Of a DNA stretch of 64,000 bases, positions 454 to 58,524 are shown piece by piece; within the stretch, counting starts at the first letter, position 1, and every line of letters begins with the position of its first letter. The notes beneath the pieces are model-generated. The model was given only the letters and a program-made list of their open reading frames with translations. It was not told the DNA's origin and did not search any database. Position numbers and translations under genes: made by a program. Source of the stretch: an uncultured Bacilli bacterium (GTDB taxonomy: Bacteria; Bacillota_I; Bacilli_A; RF39; UBA660); NCBI GenBank assembly GCA_934091055.1, contig CAKOKN010000002.1:153-64152 (forward strand). Reading direction: 5' to 3'.

Positions 454-2044
<1,591 letters not shown>

Positions 2045-2065
2045 TTCTTATCACCTTCCTGCATC

Positions 2066-2089
2066 AAATTATTTCCCGGGAAATAATTT
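2066..2089. repeat. 24-bp perfect palindrome AAATTATTTCCCGGGAAATAATTT, copy 1
   Basis: Read directly. It contains the recF stop codon (2069-2071) and ends 21 nt upstream of the gyrB ATG, just before the gyrB RBS (2051-2060). Same sequence at 14991-15014; a one-mismatch copy at 17680-17703. Confidence 0.95.
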
Positions 2090-3160
2090 TCCATTATCTA
2101 TTCTATAAACATTTGCTTTATTTCTAATATCATTATCAATATTCTCAATATCAGTAGTAGTTACAATTACCTGTAGACTACTATCCAAATATTTTAATAT
2201 GTTATTTCTTTTATTTAAATCTAATTCACTAAATATATCATCTAATAACAAAATTGGCATTTCACCAACAACGATTTTAAATAATATTACTTCAGACAAC
2301 TTAAGAGCTAAAACAGCACTTCTAATTTGACCATTACTCCCATATGATGATAAGTTTCTACCATTCAAAGAAAAATAAAAGTCATCTCTATTAGGACCAA
2401 GTAAAGTCATCTTATATTGTATATCTTTATTTAAGCTTTTTTCCAAACTATCTCTAAATGTAAAATCCGCAATATTCGTATTAGATACATATTCTAATTT
2501 TAACCCTTGTACTCCCGTAATAGAAAAAAATAAACTATCTAAATTCTTATTTATATCATCTATCATTCTTTTTCTATACTTACAAACTTTTATAGATAAA
2601 TCACTATATTTGTCATTAATAACATTTAAATATTCAATATCACTATCTTTTTGAATATTAATTATCTTTAAAAATTCATTTCTTTGACGAAGTACAGTAT
2701 TATATTCATTTAATAATTTTAAATAATTTTTATATATCTGGCTTATTTCTATATTAAAATACTTTCTTCTAGAACTTGGACCTTCTTTAAACATTCTAAT
2801 GTCATCAGTACTAAATACTATAACATTCATAATCGATATATAATCACTTAATTTTTTTATTTCTTTGCCATTTATTCTTACATTTTTACCATAACCACTA
2901 AAAGCTACCTGTAAATCATAGCTTTTATTGTTGCTCTCCAAAATTCCTGATATAACAGCAAAATTCTTATCAAATTTAATCATTTCTTTATCATTATTAG
3001 ATAAAAAAGATTTAGTAACAGCAAGTACATATATAGATTCTAAAATATTAGTTTTACCCTGAGCATTATTTCCTATTATAATATTTAAACTTTTATTAAA
3101 ATTCAATTCCAAATTATCATAATTACGATAATTAATTAACTTAATTTTTTTAATTTTCAT
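2069..3160 (-). CDS. recF: DNA replication and repair protein RecF
   Basis: 363 aa. N-terminal LINYRNY...IIGNNAQGKTNILESI Walker A, ABC/SMC-like signature, C-terminal LLLDDIFSELD Walker B. Sits in the conserved dnaN-recF-gyrB context. Confidence 0.92.
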   Translation of the reverse strand: MKIKKIKLINYRNYDNLELNFNKSLNIIIGNNAQGKTNILESIYVLAVTKSFLSNNDKEMIKFDKNFAVISGILESNNKSYDLQVAFSGYGKNVRINGKEIKKLSDYISIMNVIVFSTDDIRMFKEGPSSRRKYFNIEISQIYKNYLKLLNEYNTVLRQRNEFLKIINIQKDSDIEYLNVINDKYSDLSIKVCKYRKRMIDDINKNLDSLFFSITGVQGLKLEYVSNTNIADFTFRDSLEKSLNKDIQYKMTLLGPNRDDFYFSLNGRNLSSYGSNGQIRSAVLALKLSEVILFKIVVGEMPILLLDDIFSELDLNKRNNILKYLDSSLQVIVTTTDIENIDNDIRNKANVYRIDNGKLFPGK

Positions 3161-3244
3161 TTAACAGTCTTTCTTTTGCTCATAATTTAACCTTTCATAC
3201 ATATATGTACCCCTATACATATTTATATTATACCACAAATACAG

Positions 3245-3280
3245 GCAAAAAAAAAGAAAAAAGAGCAAGATTGCTCTATT
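3245..3280 (-). terminator. Intrinsic terminator downstream of the ComK-like gene
   Basis: Hairpin AGAGCAA-GA-TTGCTCT (3262-3277). The A-run 3247-3261 gives a U-run on the minus-strand transcript. Confidence 0.6.
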
Positions 3281-3286
3281 TTTTCA

Positions 3287-3748
3287 TTAATTTTTCATAA
3301 CTTTTTTAAACATATCCAAAAGATACTTTTCTATCTTTATACATTTAGTAATTTGACTATCAATAGTAGTATAAGAAGCACTAATATTTAACACTTTTCC
3401 ACTTTTAAAATATATTTTAGTAATATTATTATCTTCTTTCGTATATCTATCAACATTATTATAAGATATCCAAACACATTTTTCGGAATTAGGCGAAGCT
3501 GTTGGAAAAAATAATAAATTTTTATATTCTGAAATAATAATAGGAGTTTTAATATAATAATTAAATTTATCGATAACAAACTGTCGCTGCAAATTATATG
3601 AATGTCCATACCATAAACAACTTTTTTTAATGAATTTTAACCCCGTACCAACTATATTTATTTTTCTATCCTTTTCCATTACTAATAATTTCCCATCACT
3701 ATCAGAAGTAAAACATAGAATATCTTCATTGATAATATAATTCTTCAT
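3287..3748 (-). CDS. ComK-like competence transcription factor family protein
   Basis: 153 aa from the ATG preceded by AAAGGGGGA RBS (ORF track starts 6 codons earlier). The segment IKTPIIISEYKNLLFFPTASPNSEKCVWISYNNV parallels B. subtilis ComK ISHKPPIMVDPSNQIFLFPTLSSTRPQCGWISHVHV (from memory). Size and layout fit ComK. Confidence 0.6.
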   Translation of the reverse strand: MKNYIINEDILCFTSDSDGKLLVMEKDRKINIVGTGLKFIKKSCLWYGHSYNLQRQFVIDKFNYYIKTPIIISEYKNLLFFPTASPNSEKCVWISYNNVDRYTKEDNNITKIYFKSGKVLNISASYTTIDSQITKCIKIEKYLLDMFKKVMKN

Positions 3749-3892
3749 AAATCCCCCTTTCCACATATAAAATATGTACCTGCTATTAAAGCATAAACAT
3801 TTGTCGAAAATTGTAGAAATATGTCGAACTATCTCAAAAATTAAAATTTAATACCTAAAAACATCATTTTTAGCTATTTAAAATCAAATTTT

Positions 3893-3932
3893 AACAAAAA
3901 AAAAGAAATATTAACCTTATTGTAATATTTCT
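3893..3932 (-). terminator. Intrinsic terminator downstream of dnaN
   Basis: 10-bp stem AGAAATATTA (3904-3913) / TAATATTTCT (3923-3932). The A-run 3895-3904 gives a U-run on the minus transcript. Confidence 0.6.
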
Positions 3933-3955
3933 TTTATTACCTTAAAATATAATTA

Positions 3956-5071
3956 TTAACAAGTTTTAATTGGTAAAACTAATTGAATTAAAGAATCATC
4001 TTCCTTATTCTTAATAACAATAGGAGAACTATCATTATTCATACATAAAGTAACACTATCTTTATTAAAGCTTTTTATAGCGTCTAACATAAACTTAGAA
4101 CTAAATGCAATATCAATTTCCTTATCTGAATTAACAGAAATCTTCTCTTCAACTCTACCAATTTCTGGTGAATTTGACGAAATCATAAGTTCATTTTTAT
4201 TTAAAGATAACTTAATAGTATTCTTCTCTCTATCTGAAGTAAGAAGTGAAGCTCTATCTATCATATTAAACAAATCATTAAATGAGCACTCAAGTTCAAT
4301 ATTAAAATCTTTAGGAATAATATTAGAAGTAGTTGGATAAGTACCAGATAATAATCTTGATAAAAATACGATATTATCATACTTAAACAATACTTTATTA
4401 CTAAACAAGTGTAATTCTAAAGTAGAATTATCATCATCTAGCATTTTAGTAAGTTCTATTAGGTTCTTACCAGGAATGACAATATTAACATCATTTTCAA
4501 TATTATGGTCTATTTTAACAATTTTTCTTGCTAAACGATATGAATCTGTTGCTAGTACCTCTAAATCTTGATTATTAATTCTAAAGTTAATACCAGTAAG
4601 TAAAGGTCTAGTCTCACTTTGAGAAATAGCAAAAACTGTTTGATTAATAAAATCTTTAAAAATACCTGTATTAATTATTATAGGCTCTTTAGTAACATCT
4701 AAATCTAAATTAGGAAATTCATTTGGATTAATTCCATTTAGATTAAATTCTGTATTATCAGTGCTAATTATCATTTTGTAGCCATCAATTACTTCGATTG
4801 ATATATCAATATTTGGTAATTTTCTAACTATTTCAACAATATACTTACCTCCTATAACTATGCTACCTAATTCATTAATACTTGTTAGTTTCTCTTTTGG
4901 AATAAAAGACCTAATTGAAACATCAGTGTCACTAGCATATAAATATAAACCATCTTCTTTTAAATCAAATTTAATACCTGTAAGTATTGGAATTAAATTT
5001 TTTGTTGATATAGCTCTTGCTGTATTATTTAAACTTTCTAACAATATTTCTTTTTTTACAATAAATTTCAT
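3956..5071 (-). CDS. dnaN: DNA polymerase III beta sliding clamp
   Basis: 371 aa with three-domain clamp-like layout (MKF...LLESL...VxRAISTKNLIPILTGIKF; C-terminal PIVIK...LVLPI). Lies immediately downstream of dnaA. Confidence 0.92.
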   Translation of the reverse strand: MKFIVKKEILLESLNNTARAISTKNLIPILTGIKFDLKEDGLYLYASDTDVSIRSFIPKEKLTSINELGSIVIGGKYIVEIVRKLPNIDISIEVIDGYKMIISTDNTEFNLNGINPNEFPNLDLDVTKEPIIINTGIFKDFINQTVFAISQSETRPLLTGINFRINNQDLEVLATDSYRLARKIVKIDHNIENDVNIVIPGKNLIELTKMLDDDNSTLELHLFSNKVLFKYDNIVFLSRLLSGTYPTTSNIIPKDFNIELECSFNDLFNMIDRASLLTSDREKNTIKLSLNKNELMISSNSPEIGRVEEKISVNSDKEIDIAFSSKFMLDAIKSFNKDSVTLCMNNDSSPIVIKNKEDDSLIQLVLPIKTC

Positions 5072-5108
5072 TTTATCATCCTCTTTCTTTATATTATTAT
5101 TATTATAC

Positions 5109-5209
5109 TGTTGATATTGTTGATAACTTAGTTAAATCCTTATTCTATATGTGCTTTTTTATCCACAGGACTTGTTGATAACTCCGAAATTATCCACTAT
5201 TTTTCCACA
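5109..5209. promoter_or_regulatory. oriC part 1: DnaA-box cluster in the dnaA-dnaN spacer
   Basis: TGTTGATA 5109-5116, TGTTGATAA 5118-5126, TTATCCACA 5159-5167, TGTTGATAA 5172-5180, TTATCCACT 5190-5198, TTTTCCACA 5201-5209. These are consensus or one-mismatch DnaA boxes. Confidence 0.8.
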
Positions 5210-5216
5210 GACTTGT

Positions 5217-6581
5217 TTATATTCTATTTTTTAACTCACTAATAACTGTCTGAAGTTGGCTATTTGTCTTTAAATCTTTCTCAATTTTTTGATACGCACT
5301 AATAATTGTTGAGTGGTCTCTTCCTCCAAAATAGGTTCCCATCTTGGGAAATGATTCATTAGTCATTATTCTGCATAGATAAATAGCTATTTGTCTGGGA
5401 TAATTAACATCTTTACTTCTTTTTTTACCTTTTAAATCTTCAATATCAATTTTAAAATATTCACACACAATACGTTGTATTCTATGGACATCATTTTTAT
5501 AAACACTTCGTTCGCTAACTCTGTCTTTCAGGGCATCTATTGCAATGTCAAGTGTAACTTCTCCTTTATTCATCATTAATGCATAGGCAAATACCCTAGT
5601 TATTGCTCCTTCGAGCTGCCGTACATCCGAATCATTGATATTGGCAATGTATTCAATAACCTCTATTGGTAGATTTTCTGCGGCCTCCTGATGGGAAATT
5701 TTTTTCTTAATGATATCAACTCTTAAATTAAAGTCAGGTGGCGTTATATTAGCAGTTAGTCCCCAATTAAACCTAGTAATAAGCCTATTTTCCAGCATTT
5801 TTAAATCATCTACTGACCTATCTGAAGCAATAATTATTTGTTTGTTAGAATCGTGTAATTGATTAAAGGTGTGGAAAAACTCTTCTTGTCCCTTAGTCGC
5901 AGTACCTAAAAACTGAATATCATCAATAATTAAAACATCAATATTTCTATATTTATTTTTAAATGAATCAATTTTGTCGAAATTACTTTTATCATTATTT
6001 CTAACAGCATAAATATAATCATTAACAAATTGTTCACTAGATACGTAAAGTACCTTTTTATTTGAATTTTCCAATATATAATTACCAATAGAATGCATCA
6101 AGTGTGTCTTTCCCAGTCCACTCTTACCATATAAAAATAGTGGATTGTATGCTTTGCCAGGTTTTTCAGCGACAGCTCTAGCAGCTGTAAAAGCAAATCT
6201 ATTGGAATCACCAACTATAAAGTTATCAAAAGTATACTCGCTCTTTAAATTAGCAGATAAATTACTTTGGTATGGTACTCCAGAGCTTTCTATTTCTGTC
6301 TTAGGAGCCTCTTCTTCATTTTTATCCTCAGTAATTTCGCTCTCTAATTTAAACTGAAAAGTAAAATTAGTTCCAGTAATAGAATTAAATATTTCCTCTA
6401 TTTCTTCCTTATAGTTCTCTTCTAAATGTTTTTTATGAAGGGACATAGGCACCAATATAATAGCAGTGTTTTTATCTATATTATATAATTTTGTATCTTT
6501 AAACCAAGTGTCATAGGATAAAGGTGAAATTCGTTCTCTAATTTTTGTTAAAAATTCATTCCAAATCATATCTACGTTCAT
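5217..6581 (-). CDS. dnaA: Chromosomal replication initiator protein DnaA
   Basis: 454 aa. AAA+ Walker A LFLYGKSGLGKTHLMHSIGN, Walker B VLIIDDIQFL, sensor/box VII, C-terminal DNA-binding domain (RQIAIYLCR...FGGRDHSTIISAYQKI). Confidence 0.97.
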   Translation of the reverse strand: MNVDMIWNEFLTKIRERISPLSYDTWFKDTKLYNIDKNTAIILVPMSLHKKHLEENYKEEIEEIFNSITGTNFTFQFKLESEITEDKNEEEAPKTEIESSGVPYQSNLSANLKSEYTFDNFIVGDSNRFAFTAARAVAEKPGKAYNPLFLYGKSGLGKTHLMHSIGNYILENSNKKVLYVSSEQFVNDYIYAVRNNDKSNFDKIDSFKNKYRNIDVLIIDDIQFLGTATKGQEEFFHTFNQLHDSNKQIIIASDRSVDDLKMLENRLITRFNWGLTANITPPDFNLRVDIIKKKISHQEAAENLPIEVIEYIANINDSDVRQLEGAITRVFAYALMMNKGEVTLDIAIDALKDRVSERSVYKNDVHRIQRIVCEYFKIDIEDLKGKKRSKDVNYPRQIAIYLCRIMTNESFPKMGTYFGGRDHSTIISAYQKIEKDLKTNSQLQTVISELKNRI

Positions 6582-6677
6582 TTTTCACCCTCCTTGTCTA
6601 AAAGACTGTACTTTTATTATATCTCAAATTTAAATTTTGTCTAGTAATAAATTTATTTCAACAGCTAAATTAACAGG

Positions 6678-6809
6678 TTATCCACAAGTTTTCCACAATA
6701 TAATACCATATAAAATAAGAAATTGGAAGAGTTATCCACAATTTTTATTTTTTTATTATAAACAGGTGTTGATAAAAGTTTTCCACAGACCTGTTGATAA
6801 TGTGGATAA
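6678..6809. promoter_or_regulatory. oriC part 2: DnaA-box cluster upstream of dnaA with an AT-only stretch
   Basis: TTATCCACA 6678-6686, TTTTCCACA 6689-6697, TTATCCACA 6732-6740, AT-only run 6741-6762, TGTTGATAA 6767-6775, TTTTCCACA 6779-6787, TGTTGATAA 6792-6800, TGTGGATAA 6801-6809. Confidence 0.8.
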
Positions 6810-6810
6810 A

Positions 6811-6838
6811 TAAAAAAAGCCTTGATTTTCAAGACTTT
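6811..6838 (-). terminator. Intrinsic terminator of the HerA-like gene
   Basis: Stem AAAGCCTTGA (6816-6825) / TCAAGACTTT (6829-6838) with one G-U pair. The A-run 6812-6818 becomes a U-run on the minus transcript. Confidence 0.55.
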
Positions 6839-6844
6839 ACTAGA

Positions 6845-8602
6845 CTAACTTTTCCACTGTATCATCCACTTATCGAAAACATTAGCATTAGAGCTTTGTG
6901 GAGTAGGATTTGGAAGTTGCATTTTAACTATCATAGGTATTTTCATCATCTTACCAAATGCCACACAAGTACCTGATTGTAGTGATTTTTGTTTTTCTAT
7001 TACATCACTACTAATATTTGGTACCATTTTCTCAATATATTCTAAATCACTAGGATGGTTAATCTTAAATATTATAAAATTACTACACTGAGACAAAACA
7101 GTTTCTGACAATTCTGTAGGTCTTTGTGTAATTAAATCCATAACTACTCCAAATTTTCTACCCTCTTTAGCAATTCTTTCAAAGATATTATAACCAAGTA
7201 TATCTATATCACTATCTCTTTGAACATATCTATGAGCTTCTTCTAGCATAATATGTATAGGCATACCACCTCTAGTAGGAAGACTCTTTAAGAAATTAAA
7301 GAGAATTCTAGAATATATCTTAACTAAATTTTTAGCAAATCTATCATCAATATTTTCCAATACGAAATTAATAATCTGTGCTCTCTTATTAGTACCTACA
7401 AGAATTAAACTAGATATAAATTCATTTATAGTAACAAACTTATCATATTCAAAATATTTTCTCATTGAACTATTAGCAATAGTATGAAGTTTAACTTTCA
7501 AAGCAGTAGCCTCACTATAAGACTTTTCATTAAGCAATAAACCCTCAGATATCAATGTAAAGTTAAGAGCTACTTCCAAATCATCAATAGTAAAATATGT
7601 AGGAACATAATCTTCTTTCCAAACAGTTTCATTATCTATAAACTTATTTATATATTCGCTAACTAAAATTCTTTCAACAAATTGTCCTTGACTATCAATA
7701 TCAAAACATTTCCTAAAAGATCTAGTATAACCGACACCTGGAACTTCAACATCTAAATTTAATTCTTTAGTATGACAGTTTGTTAGTATTGAAAATATTT
7801 GATCTCTTATTCTAGCAGATACTTGGTTAGAATACATAACAGATACAATTGCAGAAGCTATTAAATGATTTTTATATTTATTAGATTCTTCATCATTCTT
7901 AGCAAATAAAGAAACATAAGCAAGCATCTTTTCTATTACCATTATTTGAGAATAATCAGTTACATTAAGTAAATTAGCGTAATCATCAGTAGACATCAAC
8001 CATAATGGTATTTTAAGTAAATTGTCATTTTGTTCAGTATTAGTAGTAAACATTTTATAGTTAAAATTAAAATTATAGTTATTAATTGATCTAAAGGCAT
8101 TATCATATTCGTCAGTATTGTTAAATATAAATATAATACTATTAAATGGAATATAATTAGGCATAGTAAATAAGTTTTGAACTATTCTAGCTACACCATA
8201 AGTTTTACCAGAACCAGTATTTCCAAATATAGCAGTATGATTACTCCACATATCATCAATGTTAATTTTTATTGGACTATTATTGTATAAAGGTGATAAA
8301 CCAAGAAGCATATTTGTAGGATTATTATAACCAGTAAGTTCTGCTAATTCATCAGCATTTATAATTCTTATATTAGATGAAATACTTGGCTTTCTAATTA
8401 TACCATCATAGTATTTCCCATTATTAAATTCACCAAGAAAATTAATTTTTACTTCATCGTTATTAATTTCTTCAATTTCTCCTAGTATTTTTTTATTTTG
8501 TTCTTCAAAAACAACATTTAAATTAAGCAAATCATCTTTAATAACATTATCAATTTTGACAATTGCATAATTTTTACTAATAACTACTATTTCTTTAAAC
8601 AT
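6845..8602 (-). CDS. HerA/FtsK-superfamily ATPase (DUF87-like), orphan
   Basis: 585 aa. N-terminal barrel-like region, Walker A AIFGNTGSGKTYGVARIV, Walker B-like MPIHIMLEEAHRYV, and LITQRPTELS typical of HerA/FtsK-type ATPases. Confidence 0.7.
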   Translation of the reverse strand: MFKEIVVISKNYAIVKIDNVIKDDLLNLNVVFEEQNKKILGEIEEINNDEVKINFLGEFNNGKYYDGIIRKPSISSNIRIINADELAELTGYNNPTNMLLGLSPLYNNSPIKINIDDMWSNHTAIFGNTGSGKTYGVARIVQNLFTMPNYIPFNSIIFIFNNTDEYDNAFRSINNYNFNFNYKMFTTNTEQNDNLLKIPLWLMSTDDYANLLNVTDYSQIMVIEKMLAYVSLFAKNDEESNKYKNHLIASAIVSVMYSNQVSARIRDQIFSILTNCHTKELNLDVEVPGVGYTRSFRKCFDIDSQGQFVERILVSEYINKFIDNETVWKEDYVPTYFTIDDLEVALNFTLISEGLLLNEKSYSEATALKVKLHTIANSSMRKYFEYDKFVTINEFISSLILVGTNKRAQIINFVLENIDDRFAKNLVKIYSRILFNFLKSLPTRGGMPIHIMLEEAHRYVQRDSDIDILGYNIFERIAKEGRKFGVVMDLITQRPTELSETVLSQCSNFIIFKINHPSDLEYIEKMVPNISSDVIEKQKSLQSGTCVAFGKMMKIPMIVKMQLPNPTPQSSNANVFDKWMIQWKS

Positions 8603-8690: not shown

Positions 8691-8755
8691 TGCTCACTGT
8701 TTTTGAAGCCTTAAGGTCTTCAAAAATAATTACTAAGCCTGTAGTCTTAGTAATT
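8691..8755 (+). repeat. Modular stem-loop repeat, locus 1 (degenerate 5' module plus 2 hairpins)
   Basis: TTTTTGAAG-CCTTAAGGT-CTTCAAAAA (8700-8726) and AATTACTAAG-CCTGTAGT-CTTAGTAATT (8728-8755). Lies between divergent gene starts. Confidence 0.85.
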
Positions 8756-12387: not shown

Positions 12388-12441
12388 CACTCTAAGCCTG
12401 TAGTCTTAGAGTGTTATTTTAAGCCTCAGGTCTTAAAATAA
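12388..12441 (+). repeat. Modular stem-loop repeat, locus 2 (2 hairpins)
   Basis: CACTCTAAG-CCTGTAGT-CTTAGAGTG (12388-12413) and TTATTTTAAG-CCTCAGGT-CTTAAAATAA (12414-12441). Lies between divergent gene starts. Confidence 0.85.
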
Positions 12442-14990: not shown

Positions 14991-15014
14991 AAATTATTTC
15001 CCGGGAAATAATTT
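14991..15014. repeat. 24-bp perfect palindrome AAATTATTTCCCGGGAAATAATTT, copy 2
   Basis: Read directly. Lies 3 nt past the polA stop and 36 nt upstream of the mutM ATG. A partial duplicate of one arm (CTAAATTATTTTCC) is at 14977-14990. Confidence 0.95.
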
Positions 15015-17597: not shown

Positions 17598-17679
17598 AAC
17601 CTCACCTAAGTCTTTCTATATATAATTATACTAAAAAAAAGACTTAAAATAAAGTCTTAATAAGATATTTTATATGTAT

Positions 17680-17703
17680 AAATTATTTCCCAGGAAATAA
17701 TTT
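17680..17703. repeat. 24-bp palindrome, copy 3 (AAATTATTTCCCAGGAAATAATTT, one central mismatch)
   Basis: Read directly. Lies 83 nt upstream of the polA ATG and abuts stem-loop repeat locus 3. Confidence 0.9.
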
Positions 17704-17706
17704 ATT

Positions 17707-17790
17707 AGTTCGAGCCTATAGTCTCTCACTATCATTAAAGCCTAAGATCTTTAATGAAAAATATGAAGCCTATAAATAGTCTTCATATTT
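17707..17790 (+). repeat. Modular stem-loop repeat, locus 3 (M1 module plus 2 hairpins)
   Basis: AGTTCGAGCCTATAGTCTCTCACT (17707-17730), CATTAAAG-CCTAAGAT-CTTTAATG (17733-17756), AAATATGAAG-CCTATAAATAGT-CTTCATATTT (17758-17790). Nearly identical to locus 8. Confidence 0.9.
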
Positions 17791-18415
17791 AAGTAATATT
17801 TTTAATATTTATTAGTCCATTATCATTATCAAATTCTAATTTAAATGTTTCTAAATAATTTGGTATACCATTAAAAAATACATTGTTATTATAACTATAG
17901 TCTTCGTTCAAAACGATATTACATCCCAGTTTTTTTAATAAAAATATAATTGAAGTAGCGTGACTTATTATAACAACTTTTTTATTTTTGTTTCTATTTA
18001 TTATATCAACAAGAGCATCATACATTCGACTACCAACTTCTTTTTGACTTTCTCCATTTGGTAATTTATAATTTTCATCTTCTAACTGTTTTTTTTCAAA
18101 ATTATCAGGTACTTCATCATAAGAATTAATAACTCCGTGTATTCTCTCGCCAAGTCTATTATCTATATTAACTTTTAAATTATGATTATACCCGAAGTAT
18201 TTAGCTGTTCCTAAACATCTACTATAGCCTGATGACCATACTTCATTAATATTATCAAATTCATCATTGATAGAAAACCAATTTGCCATTTTCTCCCCAT
18301 CTACACTCAGCGGTCTCCTCATATTATCAATTAAAACATTACTATCACCATTTACAATACCTAAATGTTCTTTAAAAGGCTTACTATGTCTAACTAGATA
18401 TACTATAGTACTCAT
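17789..18415 (-). CDS. Histidine phosphatase (phosphoglycerate mutase-like) family protein
   Basis: 208 aa. N-terminal IVYLVRHSKP (RHG-type motif) and VVIISHATSI near the C-terminal third. Its start overlaps the upstream stop by 1 nt (TAATG). Confidence 0.6.
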   Translation of the reverse strand: MSTIVYLVRHSKPFKEHLGIVNGDSNVLIDNMRRPLSVDGEKMANWFSINDEFDNINEVWSSGYSRCLGTAKYFGYNHNLKVNIDNRLGERIHGVINSYDEVPDNFEKKQLEDENYKLPNGESQKEVGSRMYDALVDIINRNKNKKVVIISHATSIIFLLKKLGCNIVLNEDYSYNNNVFFNGIPNYLETFKLEFDNDNGLINIKNIT

Positions 18416-19254
18416 TATTCTCTAATCACTTTCCCATCTAAATTACAAATATATGCATTCGGTAATTTACTTTTAATATAGTCTAATTTATAATTATCTT
18501 TTTCATATATTCTACCTACTAAGACGCCTTCAATAAATACTGGAGGAATACCAAATACAATAGCACTTTCTCTATTAGTAAAAAAGTCATCTCTAATATC
18601 ATTAATAAAATGATTATATATTTTATCAACTACAAAAGATTTTAGTATTTCTTTATCAAAGTCTAATCTAAAAATATCTCCTTCAAGTAGACTTTTAGCC
18701 TCTTTACTTTCCATATTAAGAATAAAACCAATTTGAACATAATCTTTTTGAAGATTAGGAAGAAATCTTGCCTCTTTAGTTTGCTCGACGAACCATTTAC
18801 TATAATCGTTATTTTTAATTTCATTTTCTATATCAGAAATAGCTATAAGTTTAGTTCTTTTAATTTCTTCAGCTGCTTCTGTTCTGTAACCATCACCAAC
18901 AAATTCAATAGTGCAGCCACTATAAAGATTAATATAATCAGATAGCATCATATCTTTTTGAATATTCCAGAATCCTACACAATAAGGATATTTTTGCCTA
19001 AATTCATTACTTCTAAAAGTACCAGCAGTAAATCCATCTTGTGCAATAATATCTAGTCCATCCATATTTTTATAGGTACCATGCATAAAAGTACCTTTCT
19101 TTAAATAAACATTATCCCCCAATTTATAACTATGTTTATCTAACTCAAAATTATCTTTATATTCATAAAACTTATTTATTTGATTAATTAATAACTCTTT
19201 AGTTTTACCTACGAAGTTATCATTAACATATTTTATATATTCTTCCTTATTCAT
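18415..19254 (-). CDS. Hypothetical protein (no recognisable domain)
   Basis: 279 aa from the ATG after the AGGTGA RBS. Translationally coupled to the downstream phosphatase gene. Confidence 0.5.
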   Translation of the reverse strand: MNKEEYIKYVNDNFVGKTKELLINQINKFYEYKDNFELDKHSYKLGDNVYLKKGTFMHGTYKNMDGLDIIAQDGFTAGTFRSNEFRQKYPYCVGFWNIQKDMMLSDYINLYSGCTIEFVGDGYRTEAAEEIKRTKLIAISDIENEIKNNDYSKWFVEQTKEARFLPNLQKDYVQIGFILNMESKEAKSLLEGDIFRLDFDKEILKSFVVDKIYNHFINDIRDDFFTNRESAIVFGIPPVFIEGVLVGRIYEKDNYKLDYIKSKLPNAYICNLDGKVIRE

Positions 19255-19271
19255 AAAAATCACCTAAATTG

Positions 19272-19709
19272 TTAATTTGAAATATTAAATTCTTCTTTCA
19301 TCATTTCGTATAACTTTAATCTTTCCTCTTTAGTAAAAATATCTTTCTGTCTTTTAAATTTACTATTCGACCATTTCCAGAAATTGTAACCAAAGTGTTT
19401 ATCAATATACACTTTATTAAACAAATTTAATTCCTTTTTATATCTAGGAACAAACCAAAAATGGACATGAGGAGTTTCATTGTCTCTGTATGCATTGTTC
19501 ATTAAGCAAGCTAAATTATACATTGTAGGATTAAATAATTTATTACATACTCTTTCCAACTCTTTTTCTAATACTCCAAGTTCTATCCATTCTTCACTAG
19601 TCATATCACTAATTTTTTCTTTATGACCAGAAATAATACAAGCACCTGGAAACTCTTGACACCAATCTTGAAATACTACTTCAAAATATTTACCCCTATA
19701 TAATTCCAT
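19272..19709 (-). CDS. HIT-like (histidine triad-related) protein with degenerate triad
   Basis: 145 aa. ETPHVHFWFVPRY resembles the HxHxHxx HIT motif, but the third His is replaced by Trp. Confidence 0.5.
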   Translation of the reverse strand: MELYRGKYFEVVFQDWCQEFPGACIISGHKEKISDMTSEEWIELGVLEKELERVCNKLFNPTMYNLACLMNNAYRDNETPHVHFWFVPRYKKELNLFNKVYIDKHFGYNFWKWSNSKFKRQKDIFTKEERLKLYEMMKEEFNISN

Positions 19710-19821
19710 TAAAATTTATCAGTCCCTTCTAAATGATACTATACACCAATTCTATGATAACATAAAAACATAAAAAAATTACACAAATTATTTAATGTTT
19801 ACAAAATTTTACAGATTTAAT

Positions 19822-19861
19822 AAATTAAAAAAAGTATTTTTTAAAAACTAAAAAATACTTT
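19822..19861 (-). terminator. Intrinsic terminator downstream of the VirD4/TraG-like gene
   Basis: 13-bp stem AAAGTATTTTTTA (19831-19843) / TAAAAAATACTTT (19849-19861), then a U-run on the minus strand. A second hairpin TAGTAAGG...CCTTACTA is at 19877-19903. Confidence 0.55.
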
Positions 19862-19989
19862 CTGCTTCTCTATATTTAGTAAGGTTTAATATAATCCTTA
19901 CTATTAACCTTTTAATAATTGGTCTATTAGTAATCAATCTTTTTGTTTTACATACCATTTTTTTACATCTTTTATCTAATATTAGTTTA

Positions 19990-21324
19990 TTACTTTATAA
20001 AAAATAATTTAATATCATTTTTTTCAAGTTTAGGTAATTCTAAAGATCCTTTTTTTATATTCCAATTAATTTCATAATCAGGAAGAACCTTAGTTTTAAT
20101 AGGCATCATCCTAGGTACTAAAATAACCTCATTAAAGAAATCTATAGTTTTTAATTCTTCAATTGAAATAAGAGGTCCTTTATTAGTATTACCGCATAAT
20201 TTACTTACTTCTTCTAAAGTATATAAATCATTTGCTAATAAATAAATAATATTATCAAAGCACATTCTAATTAATTCAGTATTTTTACTACCATAAACAT
20301 TATTTAAGTTAGTAAAGTTTTTAACAAAAGCAGTAATTTTAATATTAATTCCTCTAGCATAATTAAACTTACTATAAAAATCTACTATAGGTAATAAACT
20401 ATCAAATTCATCAATAACTAAGTTAAATCTTTCTTTTTTATTACCATATAATTGAACACTACAAAAGATTTGATCCAATAATATAGTAATTAAATTATTA
20501 ACATAACTTGAAATACCACTTATCACTATAATTGCAGTTTTTTCATTACCAATATTAGTTATGTCAAAGTCTGTTTTAGACATTGCATTAGATAATCTTT
20601 CTTTAGTAACAAACTTTTTAATTCTTTGATTAAATGTTACTAAAATACCAGCCTTTGTTTCAGGAACAGTACCAAGTGTATTAAACAAATATTGATATGT
20701 ACTAGAGTTTCTATCTATTGTATCAATAATATTTTCTTTGCTATTATTTATTTGCTCAGATAAAGAAACTACACTATTTAAATTAATTTCTTCTTCTTTA
20801 GCATTATCAAATAAATATAGAACAAGACCAACAAAATATTCTATCGCAGTATTTTCCCAGAATATATCAGAATTATCATTACTATCATGTAATAAATAAT
20901 ATCCAATATTTTCTAACATTTCAATAGCCTTATCCTTATTATCATTTTTATATAATTCATAAGGAAAAGTAAGTACATTATAATAGTTTCCTTTTTCTAG
21001 GTTAGCATAGTCTAATACTATAATATTATAATTATTATTTTTTAATTCACCACCTATCTCATCTAAAATTTCCCCTTTTACATCATTAATAAATAATGAT
21101 TCTCCAGCCTTAATAGCAAGTTTAATTTGTGGTAACATAACACTTTGTGTTTTACCACTACCAGGAGCACCAATAACAATAGTATGAGAATTATCATCTT
21201 TTATATATAATTTATTTTTATCATATCCCATTGGTATTCCTGATTTTTTGATATCTGAATTAATATCTACTTCTTTGAGAAATTTTAACATTTCCTCTTT
21301 AGTAGCCCATCTTGCATAATTCAT
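19990..21324 (-). CDS. VirD4/TraG-type (type IV coupling protein-like) ATPase without an N-terminal membrane anchor
   Basis: 444 aa from the ATG after the GAAAGGAG RBS. Walker A TIVIGAPGSGKTQS, FINDVKGEI, DIFWENTA, Walker B FNLVIDEFDSL, in the order typical of T4CPs. No hydrophobic N-terminal helices. Confidence 0.7.
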   Translation of the reverse strand: MNYARWATKEEMLKFLKEVDINSDIKKSGIPMGYDKNKLYIKDDNSHTIVIGAPGSGKTQSVMLPQIKLAIKAGESLFINDVKGEILDEIGGELKNNNYNIIVLDYANLEKGNYYNVLTFPYELYKNDNKDKAIEMLENIGYYLLHDSNDNSDIFWENTAIEYFVGLVLYLFDNAKEEEINLNSVVSLSEQINNSKENIIDTIDRNSSTYQYLFNTLGTVPETKAGILVTFNQRIKKFVTKERLSNAMSKTDFDITNIGNEKTAIIVISGISSYVNNLITILLDQIFCSVQLYGNKKERFNLVIDEFDSLLPIVDFYSKFNYARGINIKITAFVKNFTNLNNVYGSKNTELIRMCFDNIIYLLANDLYTLEEVSKLCGNTNKGPLISIEELKTIDFFNEVILVPRMMPIKTKVLPDYEINWNIKKGSLELPKLEKNDIKLFFIK

Positions 21325-21415
21325 TATATCATCTCCTTTCAAAAACATTATATTGCTAAAAATATATAAAAAGTTAAACAAAAATGGCTTTTTTATGATA
21401 AAATATATCTAGGAA

Positions 21416-21892
21416 GTGATTTTTATTTATTCTAACGAACTAGTATGTAATATTTTAAAATATATTAATAATAATATAAATACAGAAATTACTATAATAA
21501 ATCTAAGTAATATTTTTAGTTATGATAAAACATATATTATGAAAAAATTTAAAAAAGAACTAGGATTAACTATCGTAGAGTATATAAATAATAAGAGAAT
21601 ACTAAATAGCCTAAGTGATTATAAACTAAATACTACTATATTAAGAATAGCCTTATTAAATGGTTATAATAGTATAGAGTATTATTCCGAAATCTTTAGA
21701 AATTTAATAGGAGTCTCACCAAGAGTATATAAAAGATTTACAACTCCATTAAACAATTTAAATGAAGAAGTAACAAATACAATAAGAAATTCAATATCTA
21801 ATTTAATTAATATTGAAAATAAGATACAGAAATATTTAAGTAATCAAAAACCAAAAGAATTACCAGTCAGAAAATTATCAATATTTAAATAA
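21416..21892 (+). CDS. AraC-family HTH transcriptional regulator (short)
   Basis: C-terminal double-HTH signature (LSNIFSYDKTYIMKKFKKELG...ILRIALLNGYNSIEYYSEIFRNLIGVSPRVYKR). Divergent from the VirD4-like gene. Confidence 0.75.
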   Translation: MIFIYSNELVCNILKYINNNINTEITIINLSNIFSYDKTYIMKKFKKELGLTIVEYINNKRILNSLSDYKLNTTILRIALLNGYNSIEYYSEIFRNLIGVSPRVYKRFTTPLNNLNEEVTNTIRNSISNLINIENKIQKYLSNQKPKELPVRKLSIFK

Positions 21893-21976
21893 AAAACAAA
21901 AAATGCACATTTTTCTTAAAATTTTGTGCATTTTTATATATTTTTAGTACTACTTTGCACAATGATTGTGCATTTT
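21891..21976 (+). repeat. ~88-bp direct repeat, copy A, flanking the Fic gene (contains two TGCACA/TGTGCA palindromes)
   Basis: AAAAAACAAAAAATGCACATTTTTCTTAAAATTTTGTGCATTTTTATATATTTTTAGTACTACTTTGCACAATGATTGTGCATTTTT. Inverted repeats at 21903-21931 and 21956-21972. It fills the whole AraC-Fic spacer. Confidence 0.9.
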
Positions 21977-23064
21977 TATACAGAATCTTTTCCTAAAAAA
22001 ACATTATAAATAGATTTATATTTATATGCAAGTTTTGCATAAGTAGAGTCCTCCACTAAAATATTCATTTGTACTAATTTATCAATAGCAGTAGAAACAG
22101 CATTTCTTGAGACACCAGATAAATTTTCAATTTCTTTTTTAGTAAAAACGATTTGTTGCATCATAATGGGCATAATTCTATACATAACATTTCTTTTTAA
22201 TGGTTTTATTTTTTCCATATCTTCGTTATATATTTGTTTAATTCTATTAATTTTTGCTATATAATTTTCACATTGTTCAATAATACATTGTAAAAAGAAT
22301 TTTATAAAACCTAACATATTTCCTTTTCTACTTTCATTTAAAAATCTGTGATAACTGGGCTTATATAATTCAATTACTTCTGATAGAAATAGAATTGGTT
22401 CATCACCAGTAAGCATAGCAAGTTGAATAGGAATCAAAGCCCTACCTAATCTACCATTTCCATCTCTATAAGCATGAATAGTTTCAAATTGTGAATGTGA
22501 AATAGCTAAATTTATAAATATAGGATCAACGAAAGCATCATTCATATATTTAAATAAATTATTTAGTAGTATTGGAACTTCTTCAGGTACTGGTGGTACA
22601 AAAATAGCTTCGTTAATAGTACATCCTTTTGGTCCAATCCAGTTCTGAATATTTCTAATATGGCCTGGTTCCTTTTCATTACCTCTAACACTATCTAAAA
22701 GAATTTTATGTATATCATTAACAAATATTAAATTAATTTCTTTATTCTTTTTTAAATATTCTTTAGAATAATTGATAACACTTTTTAAATTTTGAATTTC
22801 CTTATTTTCATCTGTTTGAGGCATATATTTTAAATAATACACATCATCTTGTGAAATTTGTGTACCTTCAATCTGAGTAGATTTAAAACTTTCTGTAAGT
22901 ATAATTGAATCTAGGAAAAATTTTGAGTCAAAGTCCATATTTTTTAGACAAGCTTTATATTCTCCATATTTAGCATTAGCATCAGATATTAGTCTTAATA
23001 AATCCTTATCTATGGAGTATTCGATAGGTAACTCTTTTACTTTAATTGGTTCCATTTTCATCAC
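21976..23064 (-). CDS. Fic family protein (putative AMPylase) with N-terminal inhibitory motif and C-terminal winged-helix
   Basis: 362 aa. Fic motif HAYRDGNGRLGRAL (HxFx[D/E]GNGRxxR type). Upstream STQIEG matches the [S/T]xxxE[G/N] autoinhibition motif. C-terminal HTH-like LSGVSRNAVSTAIDKLVQMNIL. Confidence 0.9.
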   Translation of the reverse strand: MMKMEPIKVKELPIEYSIDKDLLRLISDANAKYGEYKACLKNMDFDSKFFLDSIILTESFKSTQIEGTQISQDDVYYLKYMPQTDENKEIQNLKSVINYSKEYLKKNKEINLIFVNDIHKILLDSVRGNEKEPGHIRNIQNWIGPKGCTINEAIFVPPVPEEVPILLNNLFKYMNDAFVDPIFINLAISHSQFETIHAYRDGNGRLGRALIPIQLAMLTGDEPILFLSEVIELYKPSYHRFLNESRKGNMLGFIKFFLQCIIEQCENYIAKINRIKQIYNEDMEKIKPLKRNVMYRIMPIMMQQIVFTKKEIENLSGVSRNAVSTAIDKLVQMNILVEDSTYAKLAYKYKSIYNVFLGKDSV

Positions 23065-23100
23065 CTCTGCAAAAATAATACCATAAAAAAATCAAAAAGT

Positions 23101-23160
23101 AAAGAAAAATGCACAATATACTTAAATTTTTGTGCATTTTTACAAATTTTGACATATTTT
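23101..23160 (+). repeat. Partial third copy of the Fic-flanking repeat (first palindrome only)
   Basis: AAAATGCACAATATACTTAAATTTTTGTGCATTTTT with ATGCACA 23109-23115 and TGTGCAT 23131-23137. Confidence 0.8.
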
Positions 23161-23187
23161 TTTTATAAAAAGTGCATAAATATCTAT

Positions 23188-23275
23188 AAAAAACAAAAAA
23201 ATGCACAATTTTCTTAAAATTTTGTGCATTTTTATATATTTATAGTACTGCTTTGCACAATGATTGTGCATTTTT
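23188..23275 (+). repeat. ~88-bp direct repeat, copy B, flanking the Fic gene
   Basis: Differs from copy A by about 3 substitutions and one 1-nt indel. Palindromes at 23201-23229 and 23254-23270. Confidence 0.9.
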
Positions 23276-23343
23276 TGACATTTCCAAATAATTTTGCATA
23301 TTTTTAATTAAAAAAATTTAATATCATATATAAACAATACATA

Positions 23344-23424
23344 AATTTAAAGACTATAAGGCTTTAAATTTTCAAATAAAGACATTAGGCTTTATTTGAT
23401 AGTGAGAGACCTTAGACTCGAACT
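23344..23424 (-). repeat. Modular stem-loop repeat, locus 4 (inverted orientation, 3 units)
   Basis: AATTTAAAG-ACTATAAGG-CTTTAAATT (23344-23370), AAATAAAG-ACATTAGG-CTTTATTT (23374-23397), AGTGAGAGACCTTAGACTCGAACT (23401-23424, reverse complement of the M1 module). Confidence 0.85.
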
Positions 23425-28179: not shown

Positions 28180-28258
28180 AGTTCGAGCCTGTAGTCTCTC
28201 ACTACATAAAAAGCCCAGGTCTTTTTATGGTAATTTAGAGCCATTAAGTCTCTAAATT
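28180..28258 (+). repeat. Modular stem-loop repeat, locus 5 (M1 plus 2 hairpins)
   Basis: AGTTCGAGCCTGTAGTCTCTCACT (28180-28203), CATAAAAAG-CCCAGGT-CTTTTTATG (28205-28229), AATTTAGAG-CCATTAAGT-CTCTAAATT (28232-28258). Confidence 0.85.
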
Positions 28259-28273
28259 AATCTATTTATAAAT

Positions 28274-38455: not shown

Positions 38456-38509
38456 CACTCTAAGTCTAAGATCTTAGAGTGTTATTTTTAGCCTATAGTC
38501 TAAAAATAA
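38456..38509 (+). repeat. Modular stem-loop repeat, locus 6 (2 hairpins)
   Basis: CACTCTAAG-TCTAAGAT-CTTAGAGTG (38456-38481) and TTATTTTTAG-CCTATAGT-CTAAAAATAA (38482-38509). Same stems as locus 2 with different loops. Confidence 0.85.
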
Positions 38510-46633: not shown

Positions 46634-46716
46634 CACTTCGTGTCTATAGTCACTCAGTGTTTTTTGAAGCCAAAGGTCTTCAAAAAAGAGTTTTAAAGCC
46701 TAAGGTCTTTAAAACT
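46634..46716 (+). repeat. Modular stem-loop repeat, locus 7 (diverged M1 plus 2 hairpins)
   Basis: ACTTCGTGTCTATAGTCACTCAGT (46635-46658), TTTTTTGAAG-CCAAAGGT-CTTCAAAAAA (46660-46686), AGTTTTAAAG-CCTAAGGT-CTTTAAAACT (46689-46716). Confidence 0.85.
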
Positions 46717-56614: not shown

Positions 56615-57253
56615 TCAATCTTTTGATTTTCCCAAAAATCTTAATAAGTCTATAAATACATTTATAAAGTCTAAGTACAATTGAAATGCACCATATATAG
56701 CAAGCTTATCTTCATCTATATCATACATTCTTCTTTTTACTATATTAATGTCATATATTATATATCCCAAGAAGATAATTAAACTTATAACACTAGTGGC
56801 CATATCTAGGAAATTACTTTTGAATATTAGAGCGTTAAGTATAATAAGAATAAGCTCTCCCAGTAGACCAAATAACAATATAGTACCTATTTTAGTTACA
56901 TCTCTTTTTGTTACATATCCATATATAGCAAGTAGGATAAATACAATTGAAGTAGCTAAAAAAGTAATTGCTATAGAAGATATTTTGAATGACAAGAATA
57001 TAAATGATAATGTAAGTCCAGTAAGGAGTGAGTATATAATATATAATACAATAGAAGCTGTTTTAGATATCTTTCTAATAAAGAAACTAAATATAAAAGC
57101 TACTACAAGTTCTAATATTATAATAGGAGCCATACCAATACTTAATATCTTAGTTAATAATACTGTATTAGTAGATAAATAATAGCCTGCTCCAAAAGAT
57201 ATTAATAGACCGATAGCTAACCAAAGAAATACTTTATTAAATATTTTATCCAT
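56615..57253 (-). CDS. Bax inhibitor-1/YccA family membrane protein
   Basis: 212 aa, ~7 TM helices. C-terminal AIYGAFQLYLDFINVFIDLLRFLG is typical of the BI-1 family. Confidence 0.8.
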   Translation of the reverse strand: MDKIFNKVFLWLAIGLLISFGAGYYLSTNTVLLTKILSIGMAPIIILELVVAFIFSFFIRKISKTASIVLYIIYSLLTGLTLSFIFLSFKISSIAITFLATSIVFILLAIYGYVTKRDVTKIGTILLFGLLGELILIILNALIFKSNFLDMATSVISLIIFLGYIIYDINIVKRRMYDIDEDKLAIYGAFQLYLDFINVFIDLLRFLGKSKD

Positions 57254-58439: not shown

Positions 58440-58524
58440 AGTTCGAGCCTATAGTCTCTCACTATCATTAAAGCCTAAGGTCTTTAATGAAAAATATGAA
58501 GCCTATCAAATAGTCTTCATATTT
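58440..58524 (+). repeat. Modular stem-loop repeat, locus 8 (M1 plus 2 hairpins)
   Basis: AGTTCGAGCCTATAGTCTCTCACT (58440-58463), CATTAAAG-CCTAAGGT-CTTTAATG (58466-58489), AAATATGAAG-CCTATCAAATAGT-CTTCATATTT (58492-58524). Differs from locus 3 by 1 substitution and a 1-nt indel. Confidence 0.9.

Follow-up and report, generated by a model that had tools for sequence, protein, structure and literature searches.

What kind of element is a short run of hairpins that recurs between the genes of an A/T-rich gut bacterium, with the same lopsided tip set on stems that differ from unit to unit? The question is raised by positions 8691-8755 of a 64,000-nucleotide stretch of DNA from an uncultured Bacilli bacterium (contig CAKOKN010000002.1 of assembly GCA_934091055.1, positions 153 to 64,152 of the forward strand), which is called the window below. 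A sequence-only reading of this window had described there the first of eight loci of tandem stem-loop repeats, and had likened them to BOX or REP/BIME elements. Much is known of small structured repeats from Proteobacteria and pneumococci but, to our knowledge, very little from the uncultured gut Bacilli with reduced genomes that are widespread in human metagenomes. The answer favoured here, which is offered tentatively, is that the arrays are non-autonomous structured repeats of the REP/BIME or BOX kind, whose asymmetric tip would be read on a folded single strand by a putative protein.

The window contains eight intergenic loci with 21 hairpins, namely 16 generic units and 5 hairpins of a second type named module 1 (Table 1). 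The coordinates and the number of hairpins reported earlier were borne out both by reading of the sequence and by a covariance model (R1), which was built from 40 distinct units and run over the whole window with filters off. R1 recovered the 16 generic units with E values from 2e-7 to 0.012, all of them inside the eight loci, and no further unit was found outside these loci at E<1 in the entire 64 kb. The apex AGCCTNNRGTCT is present in nine copies in the window against 0.12 expected, and none of 100 shuffles reached nine. The 24-nt module 1 gives four matches in the window at up to 3 mismatches, where 0 are expected. The claim that one and the same 24-nt module opens five loci held only in part: it is exact at three loci (17707, 28180, and 58440), a fourth copy at 23401 has 3 mismatches, and the fifth locus, 46634, begins with a diverged but compensated variant (CACTTCGTGTCTATAGTCACTCAGTG). 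At locus 8691 the tail of module 1 (TGCTCACTG) alone remains.

The anatomy of the units is simple. A generic unit has a lower stem of 6-10 bp, A/T-rich and variable in sequence, which carries an invariant top made up of an A-T and a G-C pair, a mismatch that is C.T or, in rare cases, T.T, then a C-G pair and at least 4 loop bases. Longer apices, such as CCTATAAATAGT, lengthen the inner helix. An array may open with a 24-nt module 1, after which come one or two units, with a single polarity throughout. In module 1 the generic tip sits on a 3-bp GAG/CTC stem, accompanied by a TC/TC internal loop and three further pairs. Folded alone as DNA, module 1 reaches only 0 to -1.1 kcal/mol; it is unstable by itself and is therefore regarded as conserved as sequence. 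Its pairs covary over 68 variants (pair 3-26 is AU in 23, GC in 20, and GU in 17; pair 5-24 is UA in 55 and CG in 5), and changes from T-A to C-G are found in separate lineages.

Further evidence for constraint comes from the generic units. The 40 distinct units had been chosen beforehand for having 6 or more of 8 outer pairs; in them 93.9% of cells pair, and two-sided changes occur in 110 cells compared with 30 in shuffles. Without that selection, 40 of the 46 apex matches that lie outside module 1 keep at least 6 of 8 outer pairs. The pyrimidine mismatch is present in all 40 units and is never repaired among them; one conspecific contig has it changed to C-G. Arrays fold much more stably than shuffles, as RNA and as DNA alike (z -4 to -8). 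At every unit with a reverse-strand match, the correct strand scores 14-21 bits (mostly about 18) above the opposite one, which shows that the units are polar. Stems that vary yet stay paired, together with a mismatch that is never repaired, fit a tip that is recognised in its distorted form, and not stability as the sole target of selection. Thus three earlier proposals are upheld: that the outer stems differ among units while remaining complementary, that the units have polarity, and that structure plus a specific apex is under constraint. The last of these is also supported by compensated changes at an orthologous locus and in a conspecific contig, described next.

The genomes closest to the window, with 93-97% DNA identity across 11-34 kb, are assemblies from uncultured bacteria of the human gut; their labels read Clostridium sp. 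CAG:302, "uncultured Tenericutes" UMGS1185, and Hadza/Nepal "uncultured Bacilli". One protein that flanks an array of the window is indexed by 286 blocks of the assembly collection. In related gut genomes (80-97% identity) arrays are found at the same loci. Those upstream of polA and polC hold the same position in genomes whose coding identity is just 76-86%, and their own identity there, 79-98%, is higher than or about equal to that of the coding flanks in most comparisons and similar to that of the promoter spacer. At locus 12388 the second unit differs from its relatives by a compensated double stem change. The array at 58440 is kept in 10/10 of the conspecific metagenome contigs read, and in one conspecific contig module 1 has gained an A in its 5' arm and a T in its 3' arm, giving an extra base pair. 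The arrays are also re-used within the window: two whole arrays, one of 84 nt at 17707 and one of 85 nt at 58440, hardly differ, CACTCTAAG recurs at 12388 and 38456, and TTTTTGAAG at 8699 and 46660. The shuffling of stems and modules among loci that had been described earlier is thereby substantiated, and array duplication with unit re-use indicates that dispersal occurs, but rarely. The best reading is that the arrays are old and vertically inherited, lie in promoter-containing spacers beside core genes, and seldom spread, doing so when an entire array is duplicated or a unit is replaced.

The 22-nt core of module 1 (TTCGAGCCTNNRGTCTCTCAC) is not restricted to this lineage. A scan of species-representative genomes located it at 81 loci, about half of them in gut relatives; the other carriers are Staphylococcus (cohnii, arlettae, kloosii, edaphicus, ureilyticus, and caeli), Mammaliicoccus, Caryophanon, Lysinibacillus, Ureibacillus, and Lacticaseibacillus songhuajiangensis. 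About 8 kb was covered around each core match in other genomes. A scan of metagenomes found the core in more than 120 loci. Staphylococcus, Mammaliicoccus, and Planococcaceae have an imperfect hairpin of about 100 nt (-45 kcal/mol, z -5.6) with genus-specific arms, whose tip consists of these same 22 nt. By reading, this element lies about 10-20 nt after a terminator-like hairpin at most aligned loci, and its context is convergent in 15 cases, sense in 5, antisense in 6, and divergent in 0. A third build, found in metagenomes, is an element of about 175 nt in which a terminal stem of about 40 bp encloses module 1 and a G+C-rich hairpin; its hosts carry a glutamyl-tRNA synthetase 81% identical to that of Granulicatella balaenopterae, and it is never found between divergent genes. 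In the Lacticaseibacillus the module is part of a 750-nt non-coding repeat. The core is thus identical in four differently built repeat families, in hosts from 25% to 55% G+C and with stems that are genus-specific. Its constancy while all its surroundings differ is hard to explain without a conserved reader and, as far as sequence comparison goes, points to a factor that reads the hairpin tip.

The hypervariable region of SCCmec contains a degenerate copy of the element, flanked by the mvaS remnant on one side and by the dru repeats on the other. In the mec region of the Staphylococcus aureus plasmid NZ_AP024743 (locus L082, 3001-3100), the hairpin of about 100 nt is of staphylococcal type with a degenerate tip, comes immediately behind the mvaS remnant's terminator, and directly precedes the dru repeats upstream of ugpQ-maoC-mecA. 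At one further locus (L014, 4058-4385) and in loci of Staphylococcus sp. ACRSN, S. edaphicus, and S. caeli, the hairpin is found inside a repeat of about 330 bp, which has inverted GTCTGGGACATAAA at its bounds and holds a terminator, a promoter-like TATAAT, and an open reading frame (ORF) of about 40 codons. A search with the exact core returned no viral contig; a shorter pattern detected two such elements in contigs of the viral collection and otherwise chance matches, which seem to fall in unrelated sequence. A few copies occur on staphylococcal plasmids and none in phage records. An origin from phages or plasmids was rejected because the core is essentially absent from phage and plasmid collections.

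What such a hairpin could be doing was examined through its gene context. Arrays occupy 0/7 convergent, 3/7 divergent, and 5/37 tandem spacers of the window; the divergent loci are 8691, 12388, and 46634, where only two had been counted before. Ordinary or factor-assisted intrinsic terminators of an A/T-rich genome would share with the arrays a hairpin near the ends of genes, and several arrays do lie near stop codons, some units have U-rich stem ends when reverse-complemented, the Staphylococcus relatives lie 10-20 nt after a terminator, and 1 of the 10 generic units between 8.5 and 28.4 kb (12388-12413) passes a terminator-like scan. This explanation is nevertheless very improbable, since the arrays avoid convergent spacers and lie between divergent promoters, two of the three divergent loci being apparently upstream of both. 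In most units T-runs lie 5' and A-runs 3', or a U-tract is absent, and the conserved mismatch and apex are foreign to terminators. Moreover, separate terminators are found next to arrays: terminator-like hairpins with T-runs were read beside 17707 and 28180, and the one beside 23344 was confirmed by the scan. The earlier statement that these are not plain terminators is therefore retained. A cis-acting RNA hairpin of an untranslated region (UTR), either protecting the 3' end of the mRNA from exonucleases or offering a tip that is bound or processed by a conserved RNA-binding protein in the manner of the eukaryotic iron-responsive element or phage boxB, has a better claim but is still unlikely. 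In the commonest context the reverse complement of the array falls in a 3' UTR, 0-20 nt from the upstream stop codon and before a separate terminator. This reverse strand folds better in 38/44 arrays, and it turns the pyrimidine-pyrimidine mismatches of the strand read here into A.G and tandem GA/AG, which are stable non-canonical pairs in RNA; in staphylococci G.U pairs are commoner on the strand read through from the upstream gene (109 vs 65). However, across the window and 45 related loci, many of them orthologous to one another, the flanking genes are antisense on both sides of the array at 25 loci, sense on both sides at 14, divergent at 11, and convergent at 2, so that the arrays are not tied to transcription. 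Five independent loci are divergent, and the two read closely appear to lie upstream of both promoters and outside any flanking transcript; the favoured strand differs between families, and Rfam gave no match even at E<10. A role in 3' UTRs would fit about half of the loci, and neither the divergent nor the '++' ones.

Double-stranded DNA elements upstream of promoters, whether they bind a regulator or a nucleoid protein or whether, as A/T-tract DNA that is curved or prone to cruciforms, they modulate or insulate the adjacent promoter, would agree with the placement of the arrays: 7/7 plus-oriented arrays of the window end 72-111 nt before the start codon of the leftward gene with their module-1 end facing the promoter, divergent spacers hold arrays where convergent ones do not, arrays and promoter spacers are about equally conserved across species, and bona fide 16-bp Noc-binding palindromes occur in the same spacers. 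These palindromes (TATTTCCCGGGAAATA, the published Noc-binding site of Bacillus subtilis; PMC7383237) lie at 2070-2085, 14995-15010, and 17684-17699, two perfect and one with 1 mismatch, against 0.03 expected. The last copy is contained in a 32-nt segment (17669-17700), 6 nt from the array, that marks a presence/absence difference from CAG:302-type relatives, and relatives have another Noc-type palindrome beside the 12388 array. Such a role is improbable, as a double-strand site explains neither the complementary variable arms nor the strictly kept mismatch, four independent '++' loci are oriented opposite to the downstream promoter, and the Staphylococcus and Granulicatella-like families shun divergent spacers entirely. 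Promoter-like hexamers were read outside the array on both sides at 8691 and 12388, of which the scan confirms only the two on the + strand, and promoter-like scan matches are not enriched in the region. A small-RNA promoter of the element's own was likewise rejected, the candidate hexamers upstream of module 1 differing between loci. There remain the gene-content breakpoints, which among close relatives fall 1-20 nt past the 3' end of three arrays. Beyond the array 17707-17790 (breakpoint 17791-17794) at least four gene contents are found among relatives of 93-97% identity: the window has three genes, L049 has those and a nested second cassette of 0.7 kb, L051 and L081 have none, and L046 and L076 have others. 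At 23344 segments of 52 nt and 412 nt stand in for each other, 16 nt from the 3' end, and at 28180 a 2.6-kb insertion lies 13-20 nt beyond the array in three genomes (L025 and L003 among them). In the more distant L021, a single array separates the neighbouring genes polA and polC, which places the whole 5.5-kb island of the window (17791-23343), an accessory segment between two arrays facing each other, at an array flank. Recombination sites or hot spots loosely like attI/attC, where cassettes turn over through a recombinase or through fork stalling and slippage, would produce such a pattern. This explanation is distinctly improbable: the junctions share no common core and only 5-12 nt of A/T-rich microhomology, and no integrase was found among the proteins scanned near arrays, a combination that argues for an illegitimate-recombination hot spot rather than a defined attachment site. 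Furthermore, the loci compared were chosen near arrays, which biases the denominator, spacers tolerate indels anyway, and the neighbouring indel of a Fic gene is explained by direct repeats of its own.

The reading of a folded strand is preferred to these alternatives because the mismatch, the polarity, the variable stems, the tandem accretion, and the proximity to other hairpins recur in REP/RAYT, in IS200/IS605 ends, and in attC. According to this proposal, the element would act with one strand unpaired, in DNA while it is replicated or repaired, or in RNA once it is transcribed. The lower stem would present the tip to a putative sequence- and structure-specific protein, for which the leading candidate class is a single-strand nuclease of HUH/Y1 type, as for REP/RAYT and IS200/IS605. 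In this lineage the 3' flank of an array is read as a preferred breakpoint for gene gain and loss. Several observations count against the proposal. No Y1/HUH transposase, RAYT, or recurrent gene was found beside the elements in the window, at the 81 genome loci, or at the metagenome loci, including those of Granulicatella type, and clustering of ORFs within 2-2.5 kb of elements returned synteny only and no shared transposase. Wobble counts do not identify the structured strand (5 G.T vs 4 A.C), and the strand favoured by folding energy in the gut family is the opposite of that in the staphylococcal family. Orientation agrees with gene strand and GC skew in 38/59 non-independent arrays, which is a bias and not a rule; strict replication polarity was accordingly rejected. 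Copy number appears low compared with classical REPs: Clostridium sp. CAG:302 has about 8 arrays that carry module 1, and each staphylococcal genome has 2-6 exact cores. No empty site was found for the 58440 array, which all ten conspecific contigs carry, and arrays are stable at orthologous sites; the nearest other species at the neighbouring RmuC gene (Clostridium sp. CAG:710, 85%) has a different neighbour gene, so that it offers no orthologous empty spacer. To these are added the short microhomology at the junctions, which fits illegitimate recombination, and the tolerance of spacers for indels, both mentioned above.

Comparison with known systems places the arrays near several families. 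Like REP, BIME, and REPIN elements, they are short extragenic imperfect palindromes that form mosaics, occupy orthologous spacers, derive polarity from an imperfection, and would be read as single-strand hairpins; the relative of about 100 nt in staphylococci resembles a REPIN in being a long hairpin of two inverted arms. Conversely, the units of every array here point one way whereas those of BIMEs alternate, and the 5' GTAG of REPs is absent, the 5' flanks being variable and T-rich with GTAG occurring only as one loop variant. Stems are variable and the tip conserved, while REPs are conserved throughout within a species. REPs number tens to hundreds of copies per genome, compared with 8 loci in 64 kb here and about 8 exact module-1 matches in the CAG:302 assembly. 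Finally, REP/RAYT systems belong to Enterobacteria and Pseudomonas, and the present host is of a low-GC Bacillus-class lineage with no RAYT found beside the arrays. The likening to BOX or REP/BIME elements therefore stands as a likeness of kind and not as membership, given the lack of GTAG and of alternation, and given that neither hundreds of copies nor a flanking RAYT was found. Nor are the arrays members of the REP/RAYT, IS200/IS605, or attC families, because their testable defining features are missing. BOX of Streptococcus pneumoniae shares a fixed first module with variable tandem internal ones, an intergenic position, a host among the Bacilli, a non-coding nature, and the lack of an identified dedicated transposase. 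Its modules, however, are sequence-conserved and 45-59 nt long rather than 24-33 nt, show no apparent sequence similarity to those described here, and acquire structure by pairing of boxA with boxC, whereas here each module is a self-contained hairpin.

MITEs (miniature transposable elements with inverted repeats) such as Correia and RUP are matched by the Granulicatella-type relative in its terminal stem of about 40 bp, its length of about 175 nt, and its preference for the 3' ends of genes; enterococcal EFAR is a further MITE. The arrays of the window differ from MITEs in having neither terminal inverted repeats nor a target-site duplication. The iron-responsive element, boxB, the end hairpins of IS608, and attC all have a variable stem that presents a fixed, distorted tip, with an unpaired base giving strand specificity, but none has any sequence likeness to the units. 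In integron attC sites conservation lies at the base of the hairpin (R''/R' boxes, RYYYAAC / GTTRRRY), opposite to the conserved tip and variable base found here, and the proteins scanned near the arrays include no integrase. Searches for described families were otherwise negative. A known Rfam RNA family was ruled out, as nothing was found at the gathering threshold in the window and six loci of other taxa, and permissive thresholds gave chance microRNA-like matches only (E 0.2-7). Literature searches with the literal sequence in both orientations retrieved no paper, although the staphylococcal or Granulicatella-type elements may already have been described; a keyword search on staphylococcal and enterococcal repeats retrieved nothing matching. 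An origin from tRNA was suggested by the resemblance of GTTCGAGCC to a T-loop and was rejected: ARAGORN makes no call, the partners of a T-stem would be variable loop bases, and the GAG/CTC hairpin covaries. CIRCE, Xer/dif, oriT nick sites, and restriction sites bear what we take to be a partial likeness, with spacing or conservation that does not fit.

Table 1. Units and modules of the eight arrays in the window (bit scores are from the covariance model).
Feature	Position	Strand	Sequence	Score	Remarks
Module-1 tail remnant	8691-8699		TGCTCACTG		Precedes unit 8699..8727
Generic unit	8699..8727	+	stem TTTTTGAAG/CTTCAAAAA, apex CCTTAAGGT	28.7 bits (R1), E 2e-4	Unit pair with 8728..8755: DNA fold -13.3 kcal/mol, z -6.3
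Generic unit	8728..8755	+	AATTACTAAG-CCTGTAGT-CTTAGTAATT	34.3 bits	
Generic unit	12388..12413	+	CACTCTAAG-CCTGTAGT-CTTAGAGTG	26.1 bits	Kept in orthologous spacers of L046, L076, and L081
Generic unit	12414..12441	+	TTATTTTAAG-CCTCAGGT-CTTAAAATAA	39.9 bits	Compensated double stem change versus relatives
Module 1	17707..17730	+	AGTTCGAGCCTATAGTCTCTCACT		Exact pattern match
Generic unit	17731..17758	+	TCATTAAAG-CCTAAGAT-CTTTAATGA	35.5 bits	
Generic unit, extended apex	17759..17790	+	AAATATGAAG-CCTATAAATAGT-CTTCATATTT	29.7 bits	Folds; 3' end overlaps stop codon of gene 17789-18415
Module 1, inverted locus	23401..23424	-	AGTTCGAGTCTAAGGTCTCTCACT		3 mismatches; directly after PolC terminator (23457-23434)
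Generic unit	23372..23399	-	apex CCTAATGT	35.2 bits	
Generic unit	23343..23371	-	AAATTTAAAG-CCTTATAGT-CTTTAAATTT	32.5 bits	Variable segment from 16 nt beyond
Module 1	28180..28203	+	AGTTCGAGCCTGTAGTCTCTCACT		Exact match
Generic unit	28204..28230	+	CATAAAAAG-CCCAGGT-CTTTTTATG	26.9 bits	
Generic unit	28231..28259	+	TAATTTAGAG-CCATTAAGT-CTCTAAATTA	27.9 bits	
Generic unit	38456..38481	+	CACTCTAAG-TCTAAGAT-CTTAGAGTG	22.2 bits	
Generic unit	38482..38509	+	TTATTTTTAG-CCTATAGT-CTAAAAATAA	39.0 bits	
Diverged module-1 variant	46634..46659	+	CACTTCGTGTCTATAGTCACTCAGTG		GAG/CTC changed to GTG/CAC, compensated; single UA pair at columns 9-20
Generic unit	46660..46687	+	TTTTTTGAAG-CCAAAGGT-CTTCAAAAAA	39.0 bits	
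Generic unit	46689..46716	+	AGTTTTAAAG-CCTAAGGT-CTTTAAAACT	39.7 bits	
Module 1	58440..58463	+	same as 17707 copy		Exact match; in 10/10 conspecific metagenome contigs read
Generic unit	58464..58491	+	near-identical to 17731-17758	39.4 bits	
Generic unit, extended apex	58492..58524	+	near-identical to 17759-17790	29.6 bits	

The window has a G+C content of 26%, its minus strand holds most genes, and its proteins include PolC, PolA, SecA, an [FeFe] hydrogenase, an LtaS-like protein, a peptidoglycan deacetylase, and the dnaA-dnaN-recF-gyrB cluster, features that place it among the low-GC Bacilli. In this cluster, dnaA, dnaN, a comK-like gene, recF, and gyrB are consecutive on the minus strand (454-6844). 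gyrB is broken into two ORFs that overlap (1307-2044 and 454-1323), a pattern suggestive of a frameshift or of an error in assembly. Cumulative GC skew shows no turn at dnaA, and an origin at this site would make nearly all genes to its right head-on. Directly upstream of dnaA, a gene for a HerA/FtsK-like ATPase (6845-8602) encodes a protein that scores below threshold against models of anti-phage and repair HerA. The 5.5-kb segment between the facing arrays encodes a histidine phosphatase, two proteins without an assigned function (a HIT-like HVHFWFVPR motif occurs in one of them), an orphan coupling protein of VirD4/TraG type, an AraC-type regulator, and Fic. The Fic-family gene (21976-23064) is flanked by direct repeats of about 50 nt holding the palindrome TGCACAATCATTGTGCA, of which more copies lie in 23065-23340; these palindromes look like operator sites. 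L049 and L051 lack Fic, which would accord with a deletion that took place between the direct repeats. At the RmuC gene (57246-58334) no homologue falls between 98% and 86% identity, and the next species is Clostridium sp. CAG:710 (85%). Since the nearest relatives over 11-34 kb are of CAG:302 type (93-97%), the two halves of the window differ in their closest relatives, which may reflect recombination, gene loss in CAG:302, or a chimeric assembly.

The persistence of one core in at least four unrelated architectures (the gut RFN20-like arrays, the hairpins of about 100 nt in Staphylococcaceae and Planococcaceae, the Granulicatella-like elements of about 175 nt, and a 750-nt repeat of a Lacticaseibacillus) allows a broader reading, which is more doubtful than plausible at present. 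The 22-nt module may be the recognition element of a putative trans-acting system common to Bacilli that, in the gut lineage, was co-opted beside the promoters of core genes, where it would mark the turnover of cassettes. A domesticated recombinase or single-strand nuclease might be its partner, and so might a conserved RNA-binding protein. Cultivable carriers, namely Mammaliicoccus sciuri and Staphylococcus cohnii, make the search for such a reader experimentally tractable, and the degenerate copy in SCCmec, beside the dru repeats used for typing, belongs to a heavily sequenced locus. In the gut lineage itself, if the association with breakpoints is genome-wide, the flanks of the arrays would provide a handle on the exchange of accessory genes in these small genomes.

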